From positions 13,827 through 77,826 of IMG/VR virus record IMGVR_UViG_3300043172_000590: a stretch of 64,000 bases of DNA; one strand, given 5' to 3'. The translations under genes were made by a program, and so were the position numbers. The stretch is from a virus. Below, piece by piece: positions 2,728-57,642 of the stretch (its first letter is position 1; every line of letters starts with the position of its first letter). Below the pieces are notes generated by a model. That model worked only from the letters and a program-made list of their open reading frames with translations. It was not told the DNA's origin and made no database searches.

Positions 2728-4518
2728 ATGAAAAGAGAATTGACAGAAGCAGCCAAGGCAGCCAAGGCAATAAGAACTGAGTTAAAAGAGGAATTTCCGG
2801 GAGTTAAATTCTCGGTTAAGTCGTCCAATTTTTCAATGGGAGACAGCGTCCACATATCCTATGTTGATGGACCGTTAACAAAAGATGTAGTAATCATCAC
2901 AGGTAAGTATCAGCAGGGACATTTCGACGGAATGACAGATATGTATGAGTATTCCAACAGCAGAGACGACATACCTCAAAGCAAATACGTACAAGTTGGT
3001 CGCACCATGTCAGCAGAGACGAGGGATGCGATATGGAAACATCTACAGGAGACGTTGACCGGATGCGAGGGCAAGGATATTGAGTCTCTTATTCCTGAAT
3101 GGAACCAGTACGGATCACATTTAACCTACCGTGTATTTTCAGAGACTAACTACTATACTGAGCCTGAAAAGAAAGAGTTATCCGCATCTACCGTGGAAGG
3201 ATTAGATTTTGAAATGGAAAAAACAGTGCACACTAAGAAGGGGCACGACGTCTGGGTAGCTAAATCATCTACCCGTGTCGGCAAAGATGAGTTCAGGGAC
3301 TTGCTGGACTGCGCTAAGATGCTGGGAGGGTACTACTCTTCGTACAGTAGAGACGGAGCAGTGCCAGGTTTTCAGTTTAAATCAGATGAGGCATGCAGGG
3401 AGTTTGTAGCTAAATGTAGTAGCGAGACAAAAGAGCCGGTCGATAACACTATTGAGACATCAACAGTAACATCGAAGACGACAACAAAGAAGTCCGATGT
3501 AAAAAATGAGGTAATGGCTGCTAAGTGGCAGAAGCTTTCTGATTCATACAGAAACGAGAGCGACAAGCTGTATGACAGGTTGAAGAATGCGCAGACCAAT
3601 ACACCTAAGCGGAACAGGGAATATAATTCCAAGAAAATTGATGCTGATATATTGAGTGATGTATCTATTCTTGCTCATGGTATTGCATTAGGATACGAGG
3701 ATGGGACTTTAGCCGAAGAGTTAAAAGTATTGCAGCCAATTAAAAATAAAAGACAACTAATGATGTTTGTCCCGGGCCATGCTAATACCGGTGGATACTA
3801 CGACGCCTTTAGAGACACCGTTCCGAATTACAAAAGGAATGGCAATATCACTGCTGGATTAAATGATGTGGGTATTGAGACTGAGGCGCAAGCGGATAAG
3901 ATACTGGAATTATTGAGCGCATTGGATAATACAAGCTCAGCGGAAAAAGAGAAGAGAAAAAACGAGGACAGGATTAAGCAGTTGGAGGATAATTTTAAGT
4001 TTCAGAAAATCAAAGGATTCTTCCCTACCCCTCTCGATATGGGGCGTGAAATGCTGAGCAGATTGGGAATAACAAACGGGCAAACTATATCTGATCCATC
4101 TGCAGGGCTTGGGCATTTAGCTGCGATTGTCAAGGAAGAATATCCAGACAACACACTGAAAACATTTGAGATAAGACCCGCTCTCTCGGAAATCCTAACA
4201 CTCAAAGGATTCGATAATACGTGCGCCGACTTTCTTGAGTGCGATGAGAAATTTGATAGGTTTATTATGAACCCCCCATTTGAAAACTCACAGGATATTG
4301 ACCACGTTCGTCATGCGTACTCGTTATTAAACGATGGCGGCAGGATTGTATCTATCATGGGGTCTGGCACATTTCACAACTCTTCCAAAAAACATAAGGA
4401 GTTTCAAGCGTGGATTGACGAGATTGGCGCCGAGTATGAAACAAATCCCGAGGGCTCATTCAAGGGAGCATTTAAAAGTACAATGGTTGGCTCCTGTATA
4501 GTTGTAATTGATAAATAA
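2728..4518 (+). CDS. polyvalent protein: N-terminal LPD29-like domain plus C-terminal N6-adenine DNA methyltransferase
   Basis: N-term AKAIRTELKEEFPGVKFSV...GHFDGMTDMYEY; C-term FFPTP, DPSAGLG (motif I) and IMNPPF (motif IV). Confidence 0.85.
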   Translation: MKRELTEAAKAAKAIRTELKEEFPGVKFSVKSSNFSMGDSVHISYVDGPLTKDVVIITGKYQQGHFDGMTDMYEYSNSRDDIPQSKYVQVGRTMSAETRDAIWKHLQETLTGCEGKDIESLIPEWNQYGSHLTYRVFSETNYYTEPEKKELSASTVEGLDFEMEKTVHTKKGHDVWVAKSSTRVGKDEFRDLLDCAKMLGGYYSSYSRDGAVPGFQFKSDEACREFVAKCSSETKEPVDNTIETSTVTSKTTTKKSDVKNEVMAAKWQKLSDSYRNESDKLYDRLKNAQTNTPKRNREYNSKKIDADILSDVSILAHGIALGYEDGTLAEELKVLQPIKNKRQLMMFVPGHANTGGYYDAFRDTVPNYKRNGNITAGLNDVGIETEAQADKILELLSALDNTSSAEKEKRKNEDRIKQLEDNFKFQKIKGFFPTPLDMGREMLSRLGITNGQTISDPSAGLGHLAAIVKEEYPDNTLKTFEIRPALSEILTLKGFDNTCADFLECDEKFDRFIMNPPFENSQDIDHVRHAYSLLNDGGRIVSIMGSGTFHNSSKKHKEFQAWIDEIGAEYETNPEGSFKGAFKSTMVGSCIVVIDK

Positions 4519-5112: not shown

Positions 5113-5517
5113 TTGATAGTGAACAAGGAGGAACATATGAAAGCAATTGATAAAATGACAGACCATGAAGTCTGGTTGGATTGGGTCAATAATTTTGTGA
5201 CAGTAGAGGCCATGGCGGAATATTACTCCGTAGGTGCCATAGAGATACACAACAAGCTAACCTTAGGGCGTAATGAGCACGATAGGTTAGCGAAAATAGA
5301 GAAAGCAAAGAAAACCCTCTCAGATGTCGGTTTCCATACCGATAACCTCTGGCATATTGATGATGTCAAGTCAAAGTTTAAATGCACAGGCAAACAGGCC
5401 ATGAGTATTCTCAGCGAGGCATTGGCTAATGATGCGACCATGCAGCAGATATGGTACGCTATTGGGTTTCATGCGGAAGAGGAGGGGCTGTGTGAGGTGG
5501 AAGAGGAGCCAGTTTGA
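5113..5517 (+). CDS. hypothetical protein
   Basis: 134 aa; WLDWVNNFVTVEAMAEYY and LWHIDDV segments resemble phage early proteins; true start may be ATG 5137. Confidence 0.65.
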   Translation: MIVNKEEHMKAIDKMTDHEVWLDWVNNFVTVEAMAEYYSVGAIEIHNKLTLGRNEHDRLAKIEKAKKTLSDVGFHTDNLWHIDDVKSKFKCTGKQAMSILSEALANDATMQQIWYAIGFHAEEEGLCEVEEEPV

Positions 5518-5558
5518 AAATTATATATCTTAACATTTTTACATAAAATTGATTTAAA

Positions 5559-5798
5559 ATGAAAACATTAAAATTATTACAACGCAATTTACTATGCATA
5601 TTGCTATGCGTTATCCTGTGTGCCGGATGCAAGACCGAAGAAACTAAACCAAAACCGTTTGAATTACCACGTAATGATATTATGGTTATTTTTGAAAACG
5701 GGTACAAAAAAGGTGCACTACATGTGCTAGAAGAGGGTTGCTACAAGCCTGAAAGATGGGAAAAAGATTCTGTTTCAGTGGTTGTGTTTTGGCAATAA
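5559..5798 (+). CDS. putative lipoprotein
   Basis: basic N-terminus, hydrophobic stretch and lipobox-like LCAG|C. Confidence 0.55.
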   Translation: MKTLKLLQRNLLCILLCVILCAGCKTEETKPKPFELPRNDIMVIFENGYKKGALHVLEEGCYKPERWEKDSVSVVVFWQ

Positions 5799-5827
5799 TA
5801 CATAACGTAATTAATAAACGCAGTTTT

Positions 5828-6013
5828 ATGAAGAATTTAATAGAAGAAATACAGTACCAATTTGAAATGCTAAAACGATGGATGCGAGAACAAAAATTGC
5901 GTTTATTTGGTGTTAGCAGGTCGTTTTATTGCCAATCAGATATTGAAGGCAATAGAAAATGTAAAAACCAATGCGACCACTGCAAAGAATATTACAAACC
6001 ATTAGAGCAATAA
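5828..6013 (+). CDS. small Cys-rich hypothetical protein
   Basis: C-terminal C-x8-CxxxCxxC; start taken at ATG 5828. Confidence 0.5.
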   Translation: MKNLIEEIQYQFEMLKRWMREQKLRLFGVSRSFYCQSDIEGNRKCKNQCDHCKEYYKPLEQ

Positions 6014-6135
6014 TATGACTGCTAACTAGCAAATAGACACACCCATGAAATTAGACAAAGATAAAGTAGAGATAATACTCGGTTCTGTAGTATTGGCAAT
6101 AGGATTGTTTTTAGTTGGCATATTACTGAACCTAT

Positions 6136-6690
6136 TTGGAGGAAATTAAAATTATGGAATTACTGCCAGGAATAACATTCACAGGAAAACACTTCACCGG
6201 AAGAGTGGAGGTGCTTGCAATTAATGAAGAGCATAACGTATTGTGGGTTAGGTGTACTAGCCGAATCAATGGCCATTGCTCTCAATTTACAGAGCATTGG
6301 GATCTGCAGCATGTAAGATGGGGTATTGAACAGGGAGAATATACCTACGCTCAATTCCCAAATTATCCGTCAGCCCATTTTTCTGGATTTACTGAGAAGG
6401 AGAAATTTATAGATGAGTGTGAAAAACTTGACAATCAATTGTATCATAAGCTCAGAGAGGCAGGGATTGAAAAGGCGAAAACTCCCGACCACGATAATGT
6501 TCCAGATGCTTCTGGCAATCCTATATTTATCCGTCCCACAATGGATGATTTTAAGGATATGTATGGCAGGTCGAAGCAACTAACCCACGGACACTACGAT
6601 ACTATAAGGACGAGCGTAAAGATAGAGCGGAACAAGCCGTGTCCTTGTGGCTCTAAGAAGAAATATAAAAAGTGTTGTTTAAATAAATAA
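6136..6690 (+). CDS. SEC-C (SecA zinc-binding) motif protein
   Basis: C-terminal KIERNKPCPCGSKKKYKKCC; true start may be ATG 6154. Confidence 0.8.
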   Translation: MEEIKIMELLPGITFTGKHFTGRVEVLAINEEHNVLWVRCTSRINGHCSQFTEHWDLQHVRWGIEQGEYTYAQFPNYPSAHFSGFTEKEKFIDECEKLDNQLYHKLREAGIEKAKTPDHDNVPDASGNPIFIRPTMDDFKDMYGRSKQLTHGHYDTIRTSVKIERNKPCPCGSKKKYKKCCLNK

Positions 6691-7676: not shown

Positions 7677-7949
7677 ATGAAAAGAGCTGTCTATAAATAT
7701 CCGCTAATGCGTACCACACAAGAAATCACTATGCCTAAGGGCTCAGTGATACTTAGCGTTCAAGCACAGAATGACGAACCTCAAATATGGGCGCTCGTGC
7801 CTGTTGACGAGGAGGAGACGCAGGCGCGCAGAATATTTATCTTAAATACCGGAGAACCGATAGATGTTATCACAGAGTGCGTCTTTTTGGGCACGTTTCA
7901 GTTAAGGAATGGAGCTTATGTGGGACATGTTTTTGAGATGATAACATAG
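7677..7949 (+). CDS. conserved phage protein (KYPL...MP.G..ILSVQ.Q...WALV...HVFE family)
   Basis: motif pattern recurrent in phage hypothetical proteins. Confidence 0.7.
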   Translation: MKRAVYKYPLMRTTQEITMPKGSVILSVQAQNDEPQIWALVPVDEEETQARRIFILNTGEPIDVITECVFLGTFQLRNGAYVGHVFEMIT

Positions 7950-7966
7950 AAATTCATAGGTGTAAT

Positions 7967-7996
7967 TTTGTTTTTCTGATTTTTGTGGTACTTTTG
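7967..7996 (+). promoter_or_regulatory. Bacteroidota primary-sigma promoter (-33/-7)
   Basis: TTTG-N18-TACTTTTG in an intergenic region. Confidence 0.7.
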
Positions 7997-8418
7997 AGGT
8001 GTTAATCACAGGTGGATTAGAATACGCCTCAAAGAGAATACGTCATGAAAATCGAGAATAATTTACATTCTATAATAAATCCGACCTTTGGCTTGACGTA
8101 TGCTAATTCTAAGGGGTCGGATTTTTCTTTTTCTTTCTACGATACGTAAGGCTACACACGAAAGGTAGATAGAACAAACTACTCAAAATATAGTTTCACA
8201 CCGAAAAAAGGCAGCGCTTATTGCGCGCGTTTTGCTGTTTAAATTGTAGTATGATTTCTGGGTACTTATTTTCTGCTACGAGCCTCAACCGATTCCTCGA
8301 TTGTTTATACGGATGATATGGTACAGATAACTACTCTTCTTTCTGGGAGGGGGAGGGGTACTTATCTTTTTTACCTTCCCTTCAAACCTCTTCATGTTTA
8401 CCGGATAACACGCATACA
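7997..8418 (+). ncRNA. structured ~420-nt leader with a 34-codon uORF (8045-8149) and terminator-like hairpin (8077-8124)
   Basis: no long ORF; AAATCCGACCTTT/AAGGGGTCGGATTT hairpin plus U-tract; further stems up to ~8390. Confidence 0.55.
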
Positions 8419-8850
8419 ATGAAAAAGAAAGGCAAACATCAAGTATCAAAAGAGCTGAAACAACGAAAAGCAAATAGAACTAAGGCACGTAAATACTCAG
8501 GACAATTAAAAAGACGAATCACAAGAGCTGAAAGAATGGTTAAGAGCATCTTGGATGAAGATGGAATAATCTACACTTTTCAGAAACCATTCTACTCACA
8601 TAATTGTTGTTATATTGTCGATTTCTACTTTGAAAATAAACTAGGAAGGAAATACATAATTGAGCTAGACGGCAAGACTCATAATCGACACACTAAAGCA
8701 TATGATAAGAATCGATCATTTTTCTTATATCACAAAAAGGAATGTGCTGTCATTAGGTTTAGAAACGAGGATGTATTCAATGATATCGACAAGATTATAG
8801 ATAAAATTTATAGCTTACACCCCCAATGTATTGATGATATTTTTATGTGA
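8419..8850 (+). CDS. DUF559/Vsr-like PD-(D/E)xK endonuclease
   Basis: T.AE, YIVDFY, IIELDG.TH, YD..R, VIRF.NEDV motifs. Confidence 0.85.
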   Translation: MKKKGKHQVSKELKQRKANRTKARKYSGQLKRRITRAERMVKSILDEDGIIYTFQKPFYSHNCCYIVDFYFENKLGRKYIIELDGKTHNRHTKAYDKNRSFFLYHKKECAVIRFRNEDVFNDIDKIIDKIYSLHPQCIDDIFM

Positions 8851-8922
8851 AAAGGGCGCGTTCTGTACTGAAAAATGATTACCAGATAATTAAAAGTACT
8901 TACATATACACAGTTTAAACTT

Positions 8923-9249
8923 ATGGAATATTTATTAGGAGCCTTTGGGCTAGGCGTATTTTTGATGATAGCCTACCAGTGCACTGGATTCACCAAGCAG
9001 ATACACGTCAAGACCACAGATGAAGCTAGGTCTTTGATTAGAAAAAAGTACGGTGCTGACTGTAATGGATTTACTTCTTGCGGACAGGGATTTTATATAA
9101 AAGGATCTGACGATGTGTATTATTGTTTTTTAGACAGTGCGGGCTCCGATAAGAAGTATGGATTGTATTTTTTATATTATAAAACTCATTCAGACGCTAA
9201 AGCATATGATGTGTGCGATATAGGAATGGCACTTACTGGTCCCTTTTAA
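8923..9249 (+). CDS. hypothetical protein with N-terminal hydrophobic segment
   Basis: 108-aa ORF. Confidence 0.55.
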   Translation: MEYLLGAFGLGVFLMIAYQCTGFTKQIHVKTTDEARSLIRKKYGADCNGFTSCGQGFYIKGSDDVYYCFLDSAGSDKKYGLYFLYYKTHSDAKAYDVCDIGMALTGPF

Positions 9250-9334
9250 CACCCCCGCAAGATGATACAAATAGGAATAGAAGAAGCTAAGCTGATTATT
9301 AAAATATAGCACACACTACCTAAATCAAAAGAGT

Positions 9335-13458: not shown

Positions 13459-13887
13459 TTAGAGTGGTAAATCATTTTCACTATCATTTTCTTCTGTAAT
13501 TTCAGACATTGACTGATCTCTTATTTCATCCTCGTCTTCCTCACTCATTACCCTCACCTTTCGTCCTTCAAGGATTTCTACTCTGTGCCACGACTCTACA
13601 TGAGTGGCAACAAACCATGTCTTAGAACCATCCTTTTTTATGAAATATCTTCTTTTTACTGCACCTTCTATCAGTAGATGTGTACCGGGTGTTATATATT
13701 TTTCTATAAGGTTCTTTGCCCTACTTCCCCATACCGCAATCTCAACCCATTCCGTAGCCTTACTCCTACCGTCCGTGGTTGCTATCTGAAACTTAGCGAT
13801 AGTATTAGCCTTTATTTTCCCTCTCTTCTTTATATCTATTATAGATATGTGCCTGCCAACGAATCCAGTAACTATGTGCCTATTCAT
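13459..13887 (-). CDS. ssb: single-stranded DNA-binding protein
   Basis: N...V.GFVG, TEWVEIAVWG, G..LLIEG, acidic tail ending DLPL. Confidence 0.85.
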   Translation of the reverse strand: MNRHIVTGFVGRHISIIDIKKRGKIKANTIAKFQIATTDGRSKATEWVEIAVWGSRAKNLIEKYITPGTHLLIEGAVKRRYFIKKDGSKTWFVATHVESWHRVEILEGRKVRVMSEEDEDEIRDQSMSEITEENDSENDLPL

Positions 13888-19621: not shown

Positions 19622-19624
19622 AGT

Positions 19625-21274
19625 CTATTTTACAACCCATGAGCCATTTTCATAAAAGTTAAATGCATTAATTGTTGTGTTGTATATTACCATTCCATTT
19701 ACTGCTGTTAAATTATCTCTTTGGCTTGTTGCCATTCTAGGAAGTAATAATGCCCCTGATGTTGATTTTATTTCAAGAGCTGCACTTGTTTCTGGGGTAC
19801 TCGTTCCAATAGCAAAATCTGAGTTAGGAACAGAAACTAATCCAATACTTGTTCCCCCTCTATTACTTGCTTTGATAATTGACTGAGTTGCTGTATATAA
19901 ATCACTTGCAGTTTTAAGCACAAACTCTTCATTAGATACTTCAATCATCCAAACTTTTTCACTACTTCCAGCATCTGACTCTTCCAGTATTATTCTTGGT
20001 GAATCTGATACAATATGTAATTCGTCATTAGCAAGATCTATTCCTATTCCTACATTACCAGTGAAATGGGGATTGTTTAATGGGGCTTTTGAATCTAAAG
20101 CTGATTGAGTGGCTAAACTTATTGGTTTATTGTCATCAGAAGTATTATCTACATTTGATACGCTTGAATTTAAAACGGCGATATCTACATCATCGACTGT
20201 TCCACTCAATGTAACGTCTCCAACTATATCTAAATTATCCTGAACTGTAAGAGTATTGCCGTCTGTATTTCTTATAATTGGTGTCTCAATATAGTCAGTT
20301 GCATCTATCGTAGTACCAGTAAAGCCAGCACCACTAATATCTCCTACATAAAGAACGCCCCTGATGTCAAAATCACTATTGACCATAAAACAGTTATCAC
20401 CAGACGACCATCCAAAGTAATCGGTTCCACTGTCGTTGAGATAAATCTTATCGGCTACTAGAGAACCATCACTATCAATAGAGGCAACATCTACACCATC
20501 GCTGTCTTTGATATACACCTTTTTAGAGCCAGCATTATCACCTAGTTTAAAGATTATATCCTTAGTGACAGAGTTAATTGTAAATGTTTGCTGCCCTTGT
20601 AGTGTCAAATCAGCACTTGCATGAATCATTCCGGTTTTACTCGAAGTAATATAAAATCGTATATAATCATTGCCTTCTGCAGCTCTTCTCCAAACTTTAA
20701 ATATCTTACCCGCTTCATCATTGCCAACATCAGTATCACTAAATACTTCAACATCATCATTTGCATAAGGTTGAATCTTTAAAATATCATCTGGGAAATA
20801 TAAGATAGGAGTTTGTATTCTGTACGGTACTTTGAAAGTTCCTACTTCCGACAATAATGCTCTTTCATCACCATCATCATACCCGCCAGTATAAAAAGAT
20901 ATATCCTGATTACTAGCGATTCTTAACTGGCCAGACTCAACCCCTATAGAGTATACATCGGAATACAAATTAATCTTTCGACCTGTAGTAGAAGGAAATT
21001 GAAGGAGACTTCCAGTTAAATCCGCCAAGTCTTTATCCCATAATGAAAATATTGGATCAGTTTCAGTATATGAAGTCAAAACAACTTCCCAGCTATCCCC
21101 ATCCCAGTATTCAAACTCACCCGTGGTAACATTATGAATGAGCCAATGTTTCCCGCTAGGATCTGAGAGGGCATCCCTTTGTGCCGTTGTTGCTTCTATA
21201 TGTTTAATAACCTGTTCTTGTCCGTATGTAAAACTTGAAATCAGAATTACAAGTAATAAAATTAATTTTTTCAT
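19625..21274 (-). CDS. tail fibre/adhesin protein with apparent signal peptide (start corrected to ATG 21274)
   Basis: MKKLILLLVILISSFTYG|Q; ETDPIF, NVDNTSD..KPIS.ATQ.ALD.KAP, GNVGIG, LLLPRM.T.QRD fibre motifs. Confidence 0.8.
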   Translation of the reverse strand: MKKLILLLVILISSFTYGQEQVIKHIEATTAQRDALSDPSGKHWLIHNVTTGEFEYWDGDSWEVVLTSYTETDPIFSLWDKDLADLTGSLLQFPSTTGRKINLYSDVYSIGVESGQLRIASNQDISFYTGGYDDGDERALLSEVGTFKVPYRIQTPILYFPDDILKIQPYANDDVEVFSDTDVGNDEAGKIFKVWRRAAEGNDYIRFYITSSKTGMIHASADLTLQGQQTFTINSVTKDIIFKLGDNAGSKKVYIKDSDGVDVASIDSDGSLVADKIYLNDSGTDYFGWSSGDNCFMVNSDFDIRGVLYVGDISGAGFTGTTIDATDYIETPIIRNTDGNTLTVQDNLDIVGDVTLSGTVDDVDIAVLNSSVSNVDNTSDDNKPISLATQSALDSKAPLNNPHFTGNVGIGIDLANDELHIVSDSPRIILEESDAGSSEKVWMIEVSNEEFVLKTASDLYTATQSIIKASNRGGTSIGLVSVPNSDFAIGTSTPETSAALEIKSTSGALLLPRMATSQRDNLTAVNGMVIYNTTINAFNFYENGSWVVK

Positions 21275-21278
21275 ACTA

Positions 21279-41086: not shown

Positions 41087-42265
41087 TTATTGAGCTGGCT
41101 TTCCGAACATTTCGTTGATTCTATCCTCAACGGTTTTCTTCTCTTTACCTCCTACGATTGGCTCCTTTTTGTTTAAACCTACGCCAGCGTTATCATATTC
41201 TTTACGCACCTCATTTTCGGTCTGCGTCTTAATATGAGAACTAAGTGCTGCGAAAATCTTTTCGTAATTATCACCAATCATAGTTTTCAATAAATCTTCC
41301 TGGATATCCTTCTGTCCCTGTTCTGTTTGCAAGTCGTAGTATCCATCCATCACATCCTCGATAATACCTTCCTTGTAGTTGCCCTTTGATGCATCCTCTG
41401 CATTAAATTCAAATACAAATCCGTCATACTCCACTTTATTTACACTTGATACAAACTTTTCCGCAGGGGCCGTGAGAGTGTCCCTCTTAGCTTTAATGTC
41501 CTCCATTGAAGCTGTTTTATCTTGGGTTAATTTTTCCAAGATATCATCACCCTCGGCCTTCGGCAGTTCGACATCACCTCCGATTTGAGAAAGCTTTTGT
41601 CGCTCGGAATGAGCCGCATTCTTTATAATATCATTTTCAAGAGGAGTCCTTTCGTACCCCTCGGTCAATATGTCTTCAACATTCAATCCAAGCTGCGACA
41701 GTTTAACTCCCAGTGGGTTAGAGGTGCCGTTTGCAGAACTAAGTTTTGCACTTAATGTCAGCACGTCCATATCGTCCATTTTCGCAACATCAGATCTCAT
41801 TACCTCATTCAATACACCTTCTTTTCCGGAATATGCCACATCTTTCGATAATTGTGCAGCTTTGTATGCTGTCTCGTCAGGGAAATATGACAATACATCA
41901 GATTGTCCTTTGAGTTTTTCGATTAATGCATCGACATGTCCGGCTTTTTCTTGTAATCCCGGCATTCCCTTGTATGCTTCTGCGACAGCAGCGAAATCAT
42001 CAACACTTGCTATCTCTAATCCTGTTGCTTTATTGAAGAATTCTAGGCGTTGTTCTGTAGTGAAGGATTCGTAATCCGCCGGATTAGCTGGATCGGCTGG
42101 ATCGGCTGGATCGGCTGGATTAGCTGGATCGGCTGGATCGGCTGGATCGGCTGGATTAGCTGGATTAGCTGGATCGGCTGGATCGGCTGGATTAGCTGGA
42201 TCGGCTGGTTTTTGTTCTCCTAAAACTGCATCTCTAATTTGCTTGTCGATCTCTTCTGTTGTCAT
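41087..42265 (-). CDS. capsid scaffolding protein
   Basis: acidic protein between portal and MCP; PAD/PAN repeat. Confidence 0.75.
   Translation of the reverse strand: MTTEEIDKQIRDAVLGEQKPADPANPADPADPANPANPADPADPADPANPADPADPADPANPADYESFTTEQRLEFFNKATGLEIASVDDFAAVAEAYKGMPGLQEKAGHVDALIEKLKGQSDVLSYFPDETAYKAAQLSKDVAYSGKEGVLNEVMRSDVAKMDDMDVLTLSAKLSSANGTSNPLGVKLSQLGLNVEDILTEGYERTPLENDIIKNAAHSERQKLSQIGGDVELPKAEGDDILEKLTQDKTASMEDIKAKRDTLTAPAEKFVSSVNKVEYDGFVFEFNAEDASKGNYKEGIIEDVMDGYYDLQTEQGQKDIQEDLLKTMIGDNYEKIFAALSSHIKTQTENEVRKEYDNAGVGLNKKEPIVGGKEKKTVEDRINEMFGKPAQ
42074..42208 (-). repeat. 9-bp tandem repeat x15 encoding (PAD/PAN)15
   Basis: ggatcggct/ggattagct units counted directly. Confidence 0.95.
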
Positions 42266-42280: not shown

Positions 42281-44689
42281 TTATACTTTTATTTGTTCCG
42301 GAGCAGCATTACTCTCTGCAATCTGCTGTCCAGCAACCGCTTTCTGTGCCTTGGGTATGTACGGCCCATTATATTGTATTATATAATCAAATTGAAACTT
42401 CTCTCTTTGCTTCTCTAATTCGAATTCGCCTTTATCTCTCTGTGCCTCTTTTTTAGCTTCTTCAAGCTGTATATTTTGTTGTCCCTGTAATTGTATGAAC
42501 TCTCTCTTGGATGCCTCCGCCTGCTTCTCTTTTTGCCTAAGCATGAATCCTAATATCATGCCTATCCTTCTGAGATTTTGCCTTTGAAGAACCATATCCT
42601 GAATAAATATAGCCTCTGATATAGAGAGCTTAGATTGATCATCGGAGCCCGTAGGCTTTATGCTTACTTGGATGAAGCCCATTATAGCAGCCTTCTCCTC
42701 TGCCAGATCGCTTGCCTTAATGTTTATGCCATATTCTACATTTGATTTATCAGCCTCCAATAAGATTACCATCCGCGTCTCGCCAATAACGTTTTCATAT
42801 GATTTTTTCACGATTTTATCATACTTACACATTGTCCGTATCCTGTACATTATATTTATGGACACGTCTTCTTGGAGCTCAGCTGTAGCTCTGGCAATAC
42901 TGTTTATTATTTCATTAGTGCCTTGCATCGCAGCCTGCATGTTATATTTAGCCACGTTTGGGTCTGGCGTAGCACCGGTAGATACCATATTTATACCGGA
43001 TGTTTTTTCGATATTAACTATAGCCTTATCCATGAGATCCAGCTGTACCTTAATATTATTGGACGTACTGTTGGATATTGGTATTATAGGCGGGGCAATA
43101 CTTCTTGCCGCTCCCGATAATGGATTCGTCGTCCTCTTGTAGAATAGTACCGTGGATTGCCGGTAATATTCCAGTATCTTCATCGGATCCCAACTCTTGT
43201 CTTTGCCTATAGAGATATTCTTAAGGCTTCCTATATCAACCGCAAAACCATCGCCCACTGCCAATGACATAAAATGTTGTGCTTTCAGCCATGCTCTTTG
43301 GAAATCGTCAACAAATGGCTTTATTTGCGATAGTATTGGTGTGGTAGACAGACGGATTGCCCTATAGCTTAATCTTGGTTTCTTGGTGGAGTTGCGGGGC
43401 ATGTAATCTACTTTACCCATGCCGAATGTATATTCAGTGCCAATTAGCCAGCTGCTCTTCCGGGCATATCGTATCTGGTACTCCTTTAGCTTTTCATTAT
43501 CTTGTAATTCCTCATCTGTGTATTTTTTGTTTACAGTCCGATTATTTGCCGAAACTTCTATATGTTTTTCATTGTCGATATCAATCCATTCATAATCCAA
43601 TACCGGCACTTTGTAGAAGTCATAGCCATAATATGTTTGTCCATACTCTTCATAAGAATATGAATAATCCTCCCAATTCGTCAAGCCAGGGTTTCCCCAT
43701 TCTCCGGAATAAGATCTTGCCAGTGCGCTTGCATCTTCATGGCTTAGATTTAATTTTTGTCGTATCTGAGATATCTCTACCCATCGTATAGTATACGCAT
43801 ATTCTGAGTCTTGATATGACTTGGTATTAGATAACTGTATTCCTGAGTATTTGAGGTCGCAATAATCAACCACAACCCTTTTAAGTTCCCTATCGTATCT
43901 TTCGCGAATTATAGCATAACCTTGCGCAAATAAGTCATCATGGATTCTTTCGGCAATCTCTTTATCCCAACTCGATACATTGAAAGTATGTTTGAGTAAA
44001 TCTTCCATGCTTATCGTATAAGGGACTTTAAATCCTCCCGATGCTGCATATAGCTCCAATTCATTGAGATTTTCAGGAATAAACTCGGGTGCATCCCGTT
44101 TTATCCCGGCCATTGCCTCCTGTTGGTCAATCCATTCCTTGTTTTTAGAGTAAAAATATGCCTTATATTTATTTTGCTCTTGGGTTCTTACGCTAAATGA
44201 GTCTATTGCATCGACAGACATTTCAGTGTACATCGAACGTATCTTCTCGTTTATTCCAGTCTTTATTTTAGGAACAACACTTACTGGTCGAAAATCTATG
44301 TTTACCCAAGCTTTTCTGCCCTTGGTCCCCCTTGCTTCTGTTGCCCCAAGATCATTGCTATCTGAATCAAACCTGCTTGCGGCATCTCCCGTATTGGTTT
44401 CTCCACCCCCGAACATCCAATCCTTGAATTTATCCATGGGATGCATCCCGTTTGCATATGCCCTATTAGTGTCAATTTGACTATAAATACTGCTATCAAT
44501 CCATGTTTTCCCAGTCGATACAAGATTGTATATCTTCTCTCCCCACATCTTATTGTACTCTACGGTATTTTTATCCGCAGGATTTATATTCCAGTCAGGA
44601 TAGTTGTACCTCCCTTTTTTGTAAGACTCGGGTTTCTTAAACTTAAAAGTCTTGGATGGCTCTATTTTATGTCTGTTTATTTTACCCAT
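42281..44689 (-). CDS. portal protein
   Basis: 802 aa immediately after TerL; W.NID.RPV..VPK motif. Confidence 0.85.
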   Translation of the reverse strand: MGKINRHKIEPSKTFKFKKPESYKKGRYNYPDWNINPADKNTVEYNKMWGEKIYNLVSTGKTWIDSSIYSQIDTNRAYANGMHPMDKFKDWMFGGGETNTGDAASRFDSDSNDLGATEARGTKGRKAWVNIDFRPVSVVPKIKTGINEKIRSMYTEMSVDAIDSFSVRTQEQNKYKAYFYSKNKEWIDQQEAMAGIKRDAPEFIPENLNELELYAASGGFKVPYTISMEDLLKHTFNVSSWDKEIAERIHDDLFAQGYAIIRERYDRELKRVVVDYCDLKYSGIQLSNTKSYQDSEYAYTIRWVEISQIRQKLNLSHEDASALARSYSGEWGNPGLTNWEDYSYSYEEYGQTYYGYDFYKVPVLDYEWIDIDNEKHIEVSANNRTVNKKYTDEELQDNEKLKEYQIRYARKSSWLIGTEYTFGMGKVDYMPRNSTKKPRLSYRAIRLSTTPILSQIKPFVDDFQRAWLKAQHFMSLAVGDGFAVDIGSLKNISIGKDKSWDPMKILEYYRQSTVLFYKRTTNPLSGAARSIAPPIIPISNSTSNNIKVQLDLMDKAIVNIEKTSGINMVSTGATPDPNVAKYNMQAAMQGTNEIINSIARATAELQEDVSINIMYRIRTMCKYDKIVKKSYENVIGETRMVILLEADKSNVEYGINIKASDLAEEKAAIMGFIQVSIKPTGSDDQSKLSISEAIFIQDMVLQRQNLRRIGMILGFMLRQKEKQAEASKREFIQLQGQQNIQLEEAKKEAQRDKGEFELEKQREKFQFDYIIQYNGPYIPKAQKAVAGQQIAESNAAPEQIKV

Positions 44690-56075: not shown

Positions 56076-56095
56076 ATTTCAATTATTTTCATATT

Positions 56096-56503
56096 AAGAC
56101 CATTATCCCTGCAAGAGGGAAGGAAGGTCTGACATCCGATATAAAGACCTACAATGTGGGTTTAAGACTTGCCTGGTTCTGCTCCCTGCTGTCGCGATTC
56201 TTTTAGTTCAACAGCAACACGATTTGCCATACGGTTTTTACAGAAATGTTTGTTTTCATTCACTCCCTTGCAGGTCTTCCGTTACGGTCAGATACGGAAA
56301 CTTTGCATTAACAAACATACAAGTACCACTACCGACTTTGATTACCCTCGATATAATCAGGGATGGAGGTCTCGCTAAACTCCGTAAGGACAGCCGAAGT
56401 AAGCACAACCATTACGACCTGAGAAGTAAAGTTTCCCCAGCCATCCAAACGGAATTAATATTTTATTTGTGAGATTCATAATAAGTTGTGCTTATTCAAC
56501 TGC
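56096..56503 (-). ncRNA. structured ~410-nt leader with a 34-codon uORF (56479-56375)
   Basis: AATTCCGT..GGATGGCTGGGG/CTTCGGCTGTCC..ACGGAGTT stem with G-U pairs on -; further stems 56144-56278 and 56097-56130. Confidence 0.55.
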
Positions 56504-56505
56504 CA

Positions 56506-56535
56506 CAAATCTACACATAAAATCTTTAAATCAAA
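56506..56535 (-). promoter_or_regulatory. Bacteroidota promoter (-33/-7)
   Basis: TTTG-N18-TAGATTTG. Confidence 0.7.
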
Positions 56536-56558
56536 ATAATTAAGAACGATTTTAAATA

Positions 56559-56629
56559 GCAGAACGAGCGATTATCCCCTTCTCGTTATCTCTACCTCCG
56601 TTATCTGGGTGAGGCACTTTTTGTTCTGC
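56559..56629 (-). ncRNA. small structured RNA (array unit F)
   Basis: GCAGAAC/GTTCTGC closing stem; three GATAA repeats inside. Confidence 0.4.
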
Positions 56630-56712
56630 ATGTTACGAGTCTGCAACGCTTCGAGTGTCTGAGCATCCGCAAATTTCCCAATTACTATATTGCTCATTTT
56701 ATCCGGATAGCG

Positions 56713-56817
56713 TGGAGAAGCAAGGACTCGAACCTCGATGTAACCATCACACTAACGAGCAGTTTCCAGCATCAAAGCCTTCGGTGTCTCCTACTTACAT
56801 AATGTGCTACCTTCCCC
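56713..56817 (-). ncRNA. tRNA-like RNA (acceptor stem plus T-arm, atypical D/anticodon region)
   Basis: GGGGAAG/CTTCTCC-A acceptor with G3-U70; CGAGG-TTCGAGT-CCTTG T-arm; no encoded CCA. Confidence 0.7.
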
Positions 56818-56849
56818 TGATTCCCCGTCTTTCCGGGCTGTCAGTGTTT

Positions 56850-56964
56850 GTATAGATTTTAGCGTATGATTACCTCTATCAACGAAGGCCCCCTATCCAC
56901 TAATTAAGCAATGCCATCTATACCGTCAATCCCTAACACCTCAGAGATTCTGCTTGATAGGGTA
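56850..56964 (-). ncRNA. possible pseudoknotted RNA (array unit E)
   Basis: crossing stems 56850-57/56916-23 and 56871-82/56954-64. Confidence 0.35.
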
Positions 56965-56975
56965 TGATGTTTTCT

Positions 56976-57072
56976 AAAAACAGAGAGGGTCGATATTTAT
57001 ACATCCAGACCTCGACTGGGATAGTTGGTTTTAATGAGACCGCTCTAACTCGTTTTTTACCTCTCTGTTTTT
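56976..57072 (-). ncRNA. small structured RNA (array unit D)
   Basis: perfect 13-bp closing stem AAAAACAGAGAGG/CCTCTCTGTTTTT. Confidence 0.55.
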
Positions 57073-57120
57073 TCGCAAATAATGATCCAACACATTATAG
57101 ACGAACTATCAATATTTTCA

Positions 57121-57340
57121 AATCTGACCGTCTGCCGGGACGGGATACTGTAGGCGTGGATTCCTTGTGCTTTTGACATGGTTATTACACAGCTATTGCC
57201 TAGGCCCCACTGGTATCTCACCAATTGCCAATATCTCTCCACCAAACACGCCACTGGCAATGACTAGCAACTTTTTTTCATCGTTAATCAGATGGTGCCG
57301 CACAAAATGTACCGCCTGCTTGTTTGTTTTCGACCAGATT
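57121..57340 (-). ncRNA. ~220-nt structured RNA (array unit C)
   Basis: AATCTGGTCG/CGGTCAGATT closing stem (G-U pairs favour -); inner ATTGCCAGT/ATTGGCAAT. Confidence 0.45.
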
Positions 57341-57351
57341 ATACTTTAAAG

Positions 57352-57441
57352 AACAGGGAGCGGAGTTTGTGCATGCGCTAGCTTTCTCACGAATTGTTTA
57401 TCCACACTATCCAAGGGTCGCACCCTTTGCAACTCTCTGTT
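57352..57441 (-). ncRNA. small structured RNA (array unit B)
   Basis: AACAGAGAG/CTCCCTGTT ends; inner AAGGGT/ACCCTT hairpin. Confidence 0.45.
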
Positions 57442-57471
57442 TATATTTTCAATGAACGAATAATCAAATAT

Positions 57472-57609
57472 AAGATGCTTCTATTCTTATCGCCCCATTC
57501 TCTCTTTGTTGTTCCAAATACTGGCAGTGGGCAACTTTAGTCTATCATATCCTCCACAGGGAACAATCCCCAATCAAATTACTACGATAAGCGTCAAACA
57601 AAGCATCTT
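57472..57609 (-). ncRNA. rod-like ~140-nt RNA (array unit A)
   Basis: nested stems AAGATGCTT/AAGCATCTT, CTTATCG/CGATAAG and TTGTTCC/GGAACAA. Confidence 0.55.
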
Positions 57610-57642
57610 TTTCTCGCATACTACAGGTTTGTCTTCAAAAAT

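Follow-up and report, generated by a model that had tools for sequence, protein, structure and literature searches.

The nuclease gene, its leader and a second locus

The sequence analysed here, referred to as the window, is a stretch of 64,000 nt (positions 13,827 – 77,826) of the virus record IMGVR_UViG_3300043172_000590 from IMG/VR, a 77.8-kb record that carries direct terminal repeats at its ends. Within a block of small rightward genes, most of them unknown, the gene for a small nuclease of the DUF559 family is separated from the preceding DUF7352 gene (nt 7677 – 7949) by a leader of 469 nt that is free of open reading frames (ORFs). Since neighbouring gaps are only 15 – 85 nt, a spacer of this length is an outlier for its block. 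The closest relative of the nuclease is encoded on a 41-kb IMG/VR contig, designated L002, where the gene is also preceded by an ORF-free leader, of 451 nt. When the two leaders are compared, a promoter motif, an intrinsic-terminator-like hairpin (T) and a pyrimidine/purine hairpin (Y/R) exceed chance, and all three recur with this only close relative of the nuclease (Table 1). Shuffled sequences, and for sequence similarity natural tiles as well, served as chance controls.

Table 1. Features of the leader and nuclease gene in the window, with the equivalent positions in L002
Feature	Window (nt)	Strand	L002 (nt)	Description
Promoter motif	7967–7996	+	2552–2581	Bacteroidota-type, TTTG-N18-TACTTTTG; predicted transcription start near nt 8001
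H1	7956–8073	+	2554–2609	Long imperfect RNA hairpin; starts 7 nt after the DUF7352 stop codon
Upstream ORF (uORF)	8045–8149	+	2591–2734	34 codons (47 in L002); crosses T and stops 10 nt after the T-tract
T	8077–8137	+	2663–2702 plus TTTTTATGTT	Intrinsic-terminator-like hairpin with T-tract; 10-bp stem 8077–8086/8115–8124; T-tract 8125–8137
Middle spacer	8138–8324	+		AGGCT/AGCCT, AAACTA/TAGTTT and GGCAGC/GCTGTT stems; folds shift with the chosen boundaries
Y/R	8325–8367	+	2934–2972	Outer 6-bp helix AGATAA/TTATCT; C·C 1x1 mismatch; inner 13-bp helix; GGG loop
Y2	8374–8395	+		Pyrimidine-rich tract; could pair with the purine arm (R) of Y/R in place of the pyrimidine arm (Y1)
DUF559 gene	8419–8850	+		Vsr-fold endonuclease, 143 amino acids (aa); basic N-terminal tail of ~34 aa

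The predicted nuclease matches Pfam family DUF559 (PF04480) with an E-value of 1.2e-14. Its best relative of solved structure, found with the single sequence, is the catalytic domain of I-Bth0305I (3r3p_A, E = 5.6e-4, residues 35 – 131), and matches with the family profile were 3hrl_A (3.7e-31) and 3r3p_A (2.3e-7). From these matches the protein is assigned to a recognised homing endonuclease fold family, that of the EDxHD or Vsr-like enzymes. Its N-terminal tail is rich in lysine and arginine and shows no recognisable DNA-binding domain. To our knowledge the DUF559 family, a very large group of small nucleases with the Vsr fold, has no assigned function. Evidence that members of this family act as selfish mobile genes is only now building up.

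Among approximately 5.8 billion protein clusters there was one relative at 71% aa identity (P0002, the protein encoded on L002) and one at 44% (P0057). The latter, a third member of the subfamily, is 257 aa long, keeps the FQKPFYS...CYIVDFYF hallmark, has a basic N-terminus of greater length, and ends in a Cys-rich extension of ~85 aa with two CxxC pairs and a weak match to Phage_zn_bind (E = 0.075). Directly 3' of the L002 nuclease gene is a 49-codon Cys-rich ORF (CxxC ... CxC; L002 nt 3477 – 3626), for which the window has no counterpart and which is not related to the P0057 extension. No DNA match to nt 7900 – 8900 and no protein match to the nuclease were present in a collection of cultured phages; genome contigs yielded no further family members, and viral contigs returned only the L002 contig again.

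Between the first 20 kb of the window and the 41 kb of L002, the only shared DNA longer than 25 nt is nt 8504 – 8853 (78% identity), and the genes upstream of the nuclease are unrelated in the two phages. A nuclease gene common to otherwise unrelated phages is the signature that horizontal mobility would leave. Synonymous sites of the two nuclease genes are saturated (pS 0.71) while dN is 0.098 (codons 29 to end), indicating that the nuclease domain is under purifying selection. It follows from the synonymous saturation that neutral DNA of the same age, the leaders included, should no longer align, and the two leaders indeed share no BLAST match. No inverted repeat brackets the nuclease gene, and the DNA 3' of it is unstructured at both loci (z +0.6 to +1.95).

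Shine-Dalgarno (SD)-like 4-mers are few in the window phage (12 of 102 genes), and positions –14 to –11 are A-rich. The L002 phage is likewise without SD sequences, and A-rich positions –13 to –11 are common to both. The combination of missing SD sequences and A-rich upstream positions is the pattern described for Bacteroidota by Baez et al. (PMC6847099), and on these translation signals both phages are classed as Bacteroidota-type.

Signals and RNA structures in the leader

An earlier reading of the window, made from its letters and ORFs without database searches (the sequence-only reading), held the ~270 nt that follow the uORF to be non-coding. The leader as a whole is non-coding: every frame holds 5 – 10 stops of all three kinds, and in the L002 leader all three kinds of stop likewise occur in every frame. 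Stop-read-through translations of both leaders matched no Pfam family except DUF559 within the gene. A coding remnant or an alternative genetic code for the leader was rejected on these grounds. In an Rfam scan, named beforehand as a check on the proposed RNA element, no family reached the gathering score anywhere in the window (seven chance-level matches lie in nt 7800 – 9000 at E up to 10), and no known riboswitch or cis-regulatory family was matched. The window leader has no tRNA or tmRNA, its internal repeats are no better than those of shuffles, and the T-tract, with TTTTTC x2.5, is the sole tandem array in it. A type III toxin-antitoxin system (ToxIN-like) was also considered and rejected, there being no tandem RNA repeats between promoter and terminator.

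The promoter motif is present where the sequence-only reading had placed it, and is beyond chance when judged jointly with L002. The consensus (TTTG/TAnnTTTG) and the spacing of 4 – 5 nt to the transcription start are as described for Bacteroidota (PMC6847099). The strict form, TTTG-N17-21-TAnnTTTG, has four matches over the two strands of the 77.8-kb genome (shuffles 2.3 +/- 1.6), other matches in the window being at nt 43610 (+) and 56535 (–). The 41-kb L002 contig has a single match over the two strands, and it is the one in the leader. The strict motif is very rare in both phages, and most of their genes are probably transcribed from other signals. The motif begins 18 nt (window) or 3 nt (L002) after the upstream stop codon.

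Enclosing the promoter motif is the hairpin H1, which is absent from the sequence-only account. As RNA it has a predicted energy of –33.2 kcal/mol (z –4.0; 0 of 200 shuffles as stable), against –23.3 on the minus strand and –14.8 as DNA. The equivalent in L002 is less extended (–15.9 kcal/mol, z –4.5). H1 pairs the AUG of the uORF, with a probability of 0.98 – 0.99 across nt 8045 – 8047 of the window and 0.98 – 1.0 over both loci. In the window, an RNA begun at the promoter leaves this AUG unpaired with a probability of 0.65, compared with 0.24 otherwise. No similarity was detected between H1 and nt 5480 – 6160 of the window.

The terminator-like hairpin AAATCCGACC/GGTCGGATTT with its T-tract was also correctly recognised from sequence, and it too is beyond chance. 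It has a partly paired loop of 28 nt and an energy of –18.5 kcal/mol (z –3.7; 0 of 200 shuffles), which places it among the 8 of 65 terminator-like sites of the window genome at or below –18 kcal/mol. In L002 the equivalent is stronger (–19.8 kcal/mol, z –6.1) and is one of 2 among the 30 such sites of its contig to reach that threshold. The T stem starts ~80 nt after the –7 box of the promoter, and the TCTATAA at the T base lies 73 nt beyond this box in the window and 77 nt beyond it in L002. At both loci the uORF crosses T and stops past the T-tract, while the peptides are unlike and the frames differ relative to the hairpin (translations compared by eye). Two pairings proposed between the T loop region and upstream sequence exist as complementary letters: TTAGAAT (nt 8017 – 8023) with ATTCTAA (nt 8106 – 8112), and ATACGTCA (nt 8038 – 8045) with TGACGTAT (nt 8094 – 8101). 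Such complementarity between loop and upstream sequence is equalled in 42 of 300 shuffles and has no equivalent in L002 (258 of 300). Anti-terminator pairing of the T loop was rejected, being within the range of shuffles and not conserved.

The pyrimidine/purine hairpin nearest the nuclease gene, the last element named in the sequence-only reading, is present and beyond chance. Its inner helix, TACTCTTCTTTCT/AGGGGGAGGGGTA, comprises 13 bp including 5 G·U pairs, and the whole has an energy of –19.0 kcal/mol as RNA (z –3.3; 1 of 200 shuffles), –7.7 on the minus strand and –2.5 as DNA (–5.7 as DNA in L002). H1 and Y/R both rely on G·U pairs and are much weaker on the minus strand and as DNA, which makes them features of the sense RNA. 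The inner helix ends 59 nt (window) or 35 nt (L002) before the start codon, and the whole hairpin 51 or 28 nt before the ATG. The inner helices of both loci begin with TAC and end with GTA, giving three identical basal pairs, and the five pairs next to the loop are also identical (U-A, C-G and three consecutive U·G). A 1x1 pyrimidine mismatch is common to both. The outer helices, AGAUAA/UUAUCU and UGAGU/GCUCA, differ on both sides at five of five comparable pairs and are still paired. Hairpins of the Y/R class number six in the window genome and five in the L002 contig, both strands counted. The strict Y/R pattern was found in viral contigs only on the L002 contig, and in metagenome contigs at one unrelated site between an acetyltransferase-like gene and another gene. 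The pattern is rare; it is no proof of relatedness, because it was built from these two loci.

In the window, Y/R is also crossed by a second 34-codon ORF (nt 8318 – 8422), whose end overlaps the DUF559 start codon as ATGA; translation of the two could be coupled through such an arrangement. At the equivalent place in L002, ORFs of at least 20 codons are absent. Strong upstream hairpins also occur at two loci of more distantly related phage DUF559 genes, L007 and L012 (z –5.1 and –4.4). At another, L014 (nt 2234 – 2356; 33% identity), a pyrimidine tract, TCTCTTCTT, lying ~60 nt upstream pairs with AAGGGGAGA, an SD-like sequence ending 4 nt short of the ATG. The L014 structure is of the phage T4 style, predicted to sequester the ribosome-binding site, and its arms resemble the Y1 and R arms of the window.

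The spacer between T and Y/R had been described as rich in stems. The letters of the three mid-region stems are present, and all three regions are paired in the minimum free energy fold, but they are not beyond chance and have no clear counterpart in the L002 fold, as judged by eye and unscored. The fold of the leader as a whole is also not beyond chance (z –2.19; 1 of 100 shuffles as stable).

The layout common to the two leaders is the promoter motif within H1, then T, then an unconserved spacer of ~200 – 240 nt, then Y/R. At both loci H1, T and Y/R are each unusually stable on the plus strand (z –3.3 to –6.1, no more than 1 of 200 shuffles being as stable). Since the feature classes were picked once the window had been inspected, the chance estimates are post hoc, and the only fair ones are those for the second locus. 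Arithmetic from the counts puts these at roughly 0.006 (Y/R), 0.011 (T) and 0.006 (promoter). Several short words shared by the leaders and spotted by eye (AAGAGAA, TCTATAA, TAAATTG, GGATGAT) have no statistical support.

A proposed mobile cassette with an RNA-level brake

The explanation we favour, with confidence that is evenly poised, is that leader and nuclease gene form a self-contained mobile cassette with an RNA-level brake, consisting of an attenuator and a hairpin in the 5' untranslated region (5'UTR). The cassette would be independent of the phage's own transcription programme because it brings its own host-type promoter, which would free expression of the nuclease from that programme. 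T would stop transcripts arriving from upstream genes and most of those begun at the cassette promoter, the latter yielding an RNA of ~125 – 130 nt, while a regulated minority would read through. The read-through mRNA would have a long structured 5'UTR in which Y/R may set the rate of translation, processing or stability, possibly by switching with the alternative R:Y2 pairing. The net effect would be that a DNA-cutting enzyme is kept low or timed, and insulated from phage transcription. Attenuation of a toxic nuclease had been one of three hypotheses of the sequence-only reading; its promoter, terminator and pre-start hairpin recur in an unrelated phage, while the specific anti-terminator pairing does not hold. 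Translation of the uORF through T as the signal for read-through, in the manner of pyrBI, is weakly supported.

Several observations, besides the post hoc character of the chance estimates, weigh against this explanation. The leader is known from two loci only, which makes covariation statistics impossible. The best local alignment of the two leaders scores 85, where shuffles give 79.9 +/- 11.9 (148 of 500 reach the observed score) and natural tiles reach it in 84 of 350 and 194 of 674 cases. For a colinear word chain the leaders score 52, a value that 55 of 524 and 156 of 1012 tiles also attain, and neither hairpin best-matches its partner by sequence in the other genome. A uORF crossing T arises in 583 of 3000 shuffles of the window and 633 of 3000 of L002, or about one in five, so that this part of the earlier claim, while correct as to the presence of the ORF, is not beyond chance. 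A start at the promoter fails to expose the uORF AUG in L002 (unpaired 0.12 vs 0.14), and in each phage T may be no more than the terminator of the transcription unit before it.

Other points on the same side concern the nuclease start and the wider family. The R:Y2 duplex has an energy of –18.8 kcal/mol in the window, and its counterpart in L002, AAGGGG:CCCCTT, –10.1, but a two-state switch between Y/R and R:Y2 was rejected as composition explains the pairing (166 of 300 and 28 of 300 shuffles equal it). The DUF559 start regions are largely unpaired at both loci, unlike the T4 cases. Ten more distant phage DUF559 genes (from 13 loci, less one L002 duplicate and two in which no ORF was found) have upstream gaps of –2 to 518 nt and no common leader. 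Searches with the flanking proteins found no loci that would represent an empty site, the DUF7352 protein having only three distant relatives.

As the comparison comprises two loci and the RNA is predicted only, the leader is a well-defined lead and not an established RNA element. The kind of arrangement, a phage homing-type nuclease gene with a regulatory RNA structure upstream, is known. What is new is a tripartite leader travelling with a DUF559 gene between Bacteroidota phages; a literature search gave no description of such a leader, little of it having been aimed specifically at a 'DUF559 leader RNA'. One DUF559 gene would then carry a complete expression unit of promoter, terminator and RNA hairpins with it as it moves between Bacteroidota phages that are otherwise unrelated. 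If so, hairpin control of homing nucleases would extend from the T4-like phages, where it hides the SD, to hosts without SD sequences, and the leader would provide a compact attenuator/5'UTR module for the Flavobacteriia, where few regulatory RNA parts are known.

Comparison with known systems

In a pyrBI-type attenuator, a promoter is followed by a short leader ORF that crosses an intrinsic terminator, and then by the regulated gene. By prediction, both loci have the same order of promoter, ORF through terminator, and gene. They differ in having an extra ~270 – 290 nt between attenuator and gene, and the ORF layout itself is of a kind met in about one of five shuffles, with neither peptide nor frame conserved.

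The homing genes of T4-type phages provide a closer parallel, RNA hairpins being described as controlling I-TevI, I-TevII, I-TevIII and segB of T4, and mobE of Aeh1 (PMC2988022). As in the window, a stable sense-strand hairpin precedes a selfish phage nuclease gene. A promoter in these systems lies within a hairpin, so that an RNA begun there folds otherwise than one arriving from upstream; the promoter motif inside H1 is a possible counterpart, although a start at the promoter is predicted to free the uORF AUG in the window and not in L002. Such control serves to keep the nuclease low or timed, as proposed here for the window. In the T4 cases described, however, the hairpin hides the SD directly at the start, whereas Y/R lies 35 – 59 nt upstream, there is no SD, and the start is unsequestered. 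The promoter-bearing hairpin H1 of the window is separate from Y/R, ~350 nt further upstream, and pairs the AUG of the uORF and not the nuclease start. The window further differs in adding a strong terminator and a leader of ~450 nt.

A similar case is that of the marine 'fractured genes', for which Dassa et al. (2009; PMC2677866) report 5'UTR hairpins in 15 of 16 free-standing Vsr-like or GIY-YIG nuclease genes. These share with the window a marine phage-type setting, membership of the Vsr-like family and hairpins 5' of the start. The arms of the published hairpins carry complementary conserved motifs (PMC2677866). The fractured-gene nucleases sit between split-intein halves of replication genes, whereas the window cassette lies between unrelated small early genes, and their hairpins are reported often to hold a T4-type late promoter, TATAAATA, where the window has a Bacteroidota host-type promoter (PMC2677866). 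The window also spreads three modules over ~450 nt.

For the protein, the nearest reference is I-Bth0305I (PMC3239194; PDB 3r3p), which is the prototype of the EDxHD (Vsr-like) group of homing enzymes. This enzyme is intron-encoded and is described as having a 165-aa N-terminal region with NUMOD and helix-turn-helix (HTH) elements, while the window protein is free-standing, 143 aa long, and has a basic tail only (PMC3239194).

Alternative explanations

The promoter-terminator segment (~nt 8001 – 8132; L002 ~2586 – 2710) may instead be a separate gene for a trans-acting small RNA of ~125 – 130 nt, an antitoxin-like or regulatory RNA travelling with the nuclease, the remainder being an ordinary long 5'UTR. 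The predicted length is equal at both loci, each with a 5' stem-loop followed by a terminator hairpin with U-tail, and the promoter motif is significant jointly across the two. In the window, the tail of T is moreover 88% complementary to the DUF559 start region; pairing of the U-tract with the start codon was nevertheless rejected, as this complementarity is within chance (30 of 300 shuffles) and absent in L002 (138 of 300). Tandem repeats in the style of a type III antitoxin are missing, and the conserved Y/R would be left unexplained. On balance we consider a separate small RNA unlikely.

It may also be that the shared features are unrelated and the spacer has no dedicated function. T would then end the upstream unit, the promoters would be by-products of T-rich arms, and Y/R would be the leftover of an SD-sequestering hairpin. 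That the leader sequences are unalignable agrees with this, as do AAA...TTT-style terminators elsewhere in both genomes and other ORF-free gaps of 406 – 496 nt in the phage. At L014 the Y/R-like pairing sequesters a real SD, and the window hairpin could therefore be a relic of such a structure. Such an origin would however require that three features came together twice, in unrelated contexts, with matching order and comparable spacing, each having the low second-locus chance given above. It must also account for ~450 nt being kept in tightly packed blocks despite saturated neutral divergence, and for a Y/R pairing that survives the two-sided changes in its outer helix. An absence of function is unlikely, in our view.

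HEARO is an Rfam family, and omega RNAs belong to IsrB, IscB and TnpB. The second hypothesis of the sequence-only reading was an RNA partner of the nuclease, as HEARO and omega RNAs sit 5' of their nucleases. In a fuller form, the leader RNA would be a scaffold or guide supplying target recognition, by analogy with the RNAs encoded 5' of IsrB and IscB. The layout is alike, with a few hundred nt of structured non-coding sequence directly 5' of a small nuclease in a mobile unit, and a structured sense-strand RNA of constant size stays with the gene. The idea is attractive because the nuclease, a protein of 143 aa consisting of the catalytic domain and a basic N-terminal tail, has no recognition domain, and because Vsr-like folds can bind RNA, FASTKD4 being an example (PMC11879112). 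I-Bth0305I is described as needing its 165-aa N-terminal NUMOD/HTH region (PMC3239194), and P0057 carries the Cys-rich C-terminal extension noted above. The leader has, however, no Rfam match and no conserved scaffold sequence, though the scaffolds of guide RNAs usually stay recognisable. The nuclease is of the Vsr/PD-(D/E)xK type and not of the RuvC/HNH fold of IscB and TnpB, a strong terminator lies inside the supposed RNA, and most DUF559 proteins consist of the domain alone and are without such a leader. The proposal gains no positive support, and an RNA partner is improbable on present evidence. There is only a slim chance that the leader yields an RNA giving the nuclease target recognition or self/non-self discrimination, which would make it an RNA-assisted homing nuclease unrelated to IscB and TnpB.

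Still less can be said for the spacer as a decayed coding remnant, such as a lost N-terminal DNA-binding domain of a longer homing endonuclease. At ~150 codons its length is near that of the 165-aa N-terminal region described for I-Bth0305I (PMC3239194), but there are 5 – 18 stops per frame and no Pfam remnant in any plus-strand frame at either locus, 450 nt without function would have had to survive in both lineages while divergence reached saturation, and the longer relative, P0057, extends C-terminally and not by an N-terminal domain. We regard this as very improbable. The third earlier hypothesis, a primer or origin RNA like RNAII of ColE1 in which a G-tract promotes an R-loop, is scarcely credible: the G-rich run GGGAGGGGGAGGGG at nt 8345 – 8358 shrinks to GGGG in L002 and at both loci forms the 3' side of a stable hairpin in the RNA, the unit moves with the nuclease gene between unrelated phages amid small unknown early genes, no replication gene adjoins it, and there is no Rfam match.

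Other features of the window

Besides the leader, ORF-poor stretches of 406 – 496 nt each are present at nt 19622 – 21278 and 56076 – 57642 (by a crude, ATG-only gene call), and none of them holds a Y/R hairpin of the scanned class. One DNA sequencing run, possibly that of the source sample, contains the window, and no RNA run is listed as containing it; in the DNA run, no contig joins across the cassette. Two contigs of that run end or begin at nt 9262 – 9299, and a 29-kb contig of the run carries the same 38 bases in the opposite orientation, so the site looks like an assembly-graph junction, caused by a short repeat or strain variant. The early rightward block also encodes a 596-aa protein (nt 2728 – 4518) that combines a small methyltransferase domain with LPD29, a 'large polyvalent protein' domain, at its N-terminus. 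At nt 42056 – 42226 there is a tandem array of perfect 9-nt period (GGATCGGCT and GGATTAGCT units, at least 13 registers), which a gene on the minus strand probably translates into a peptide repeat of three residues.

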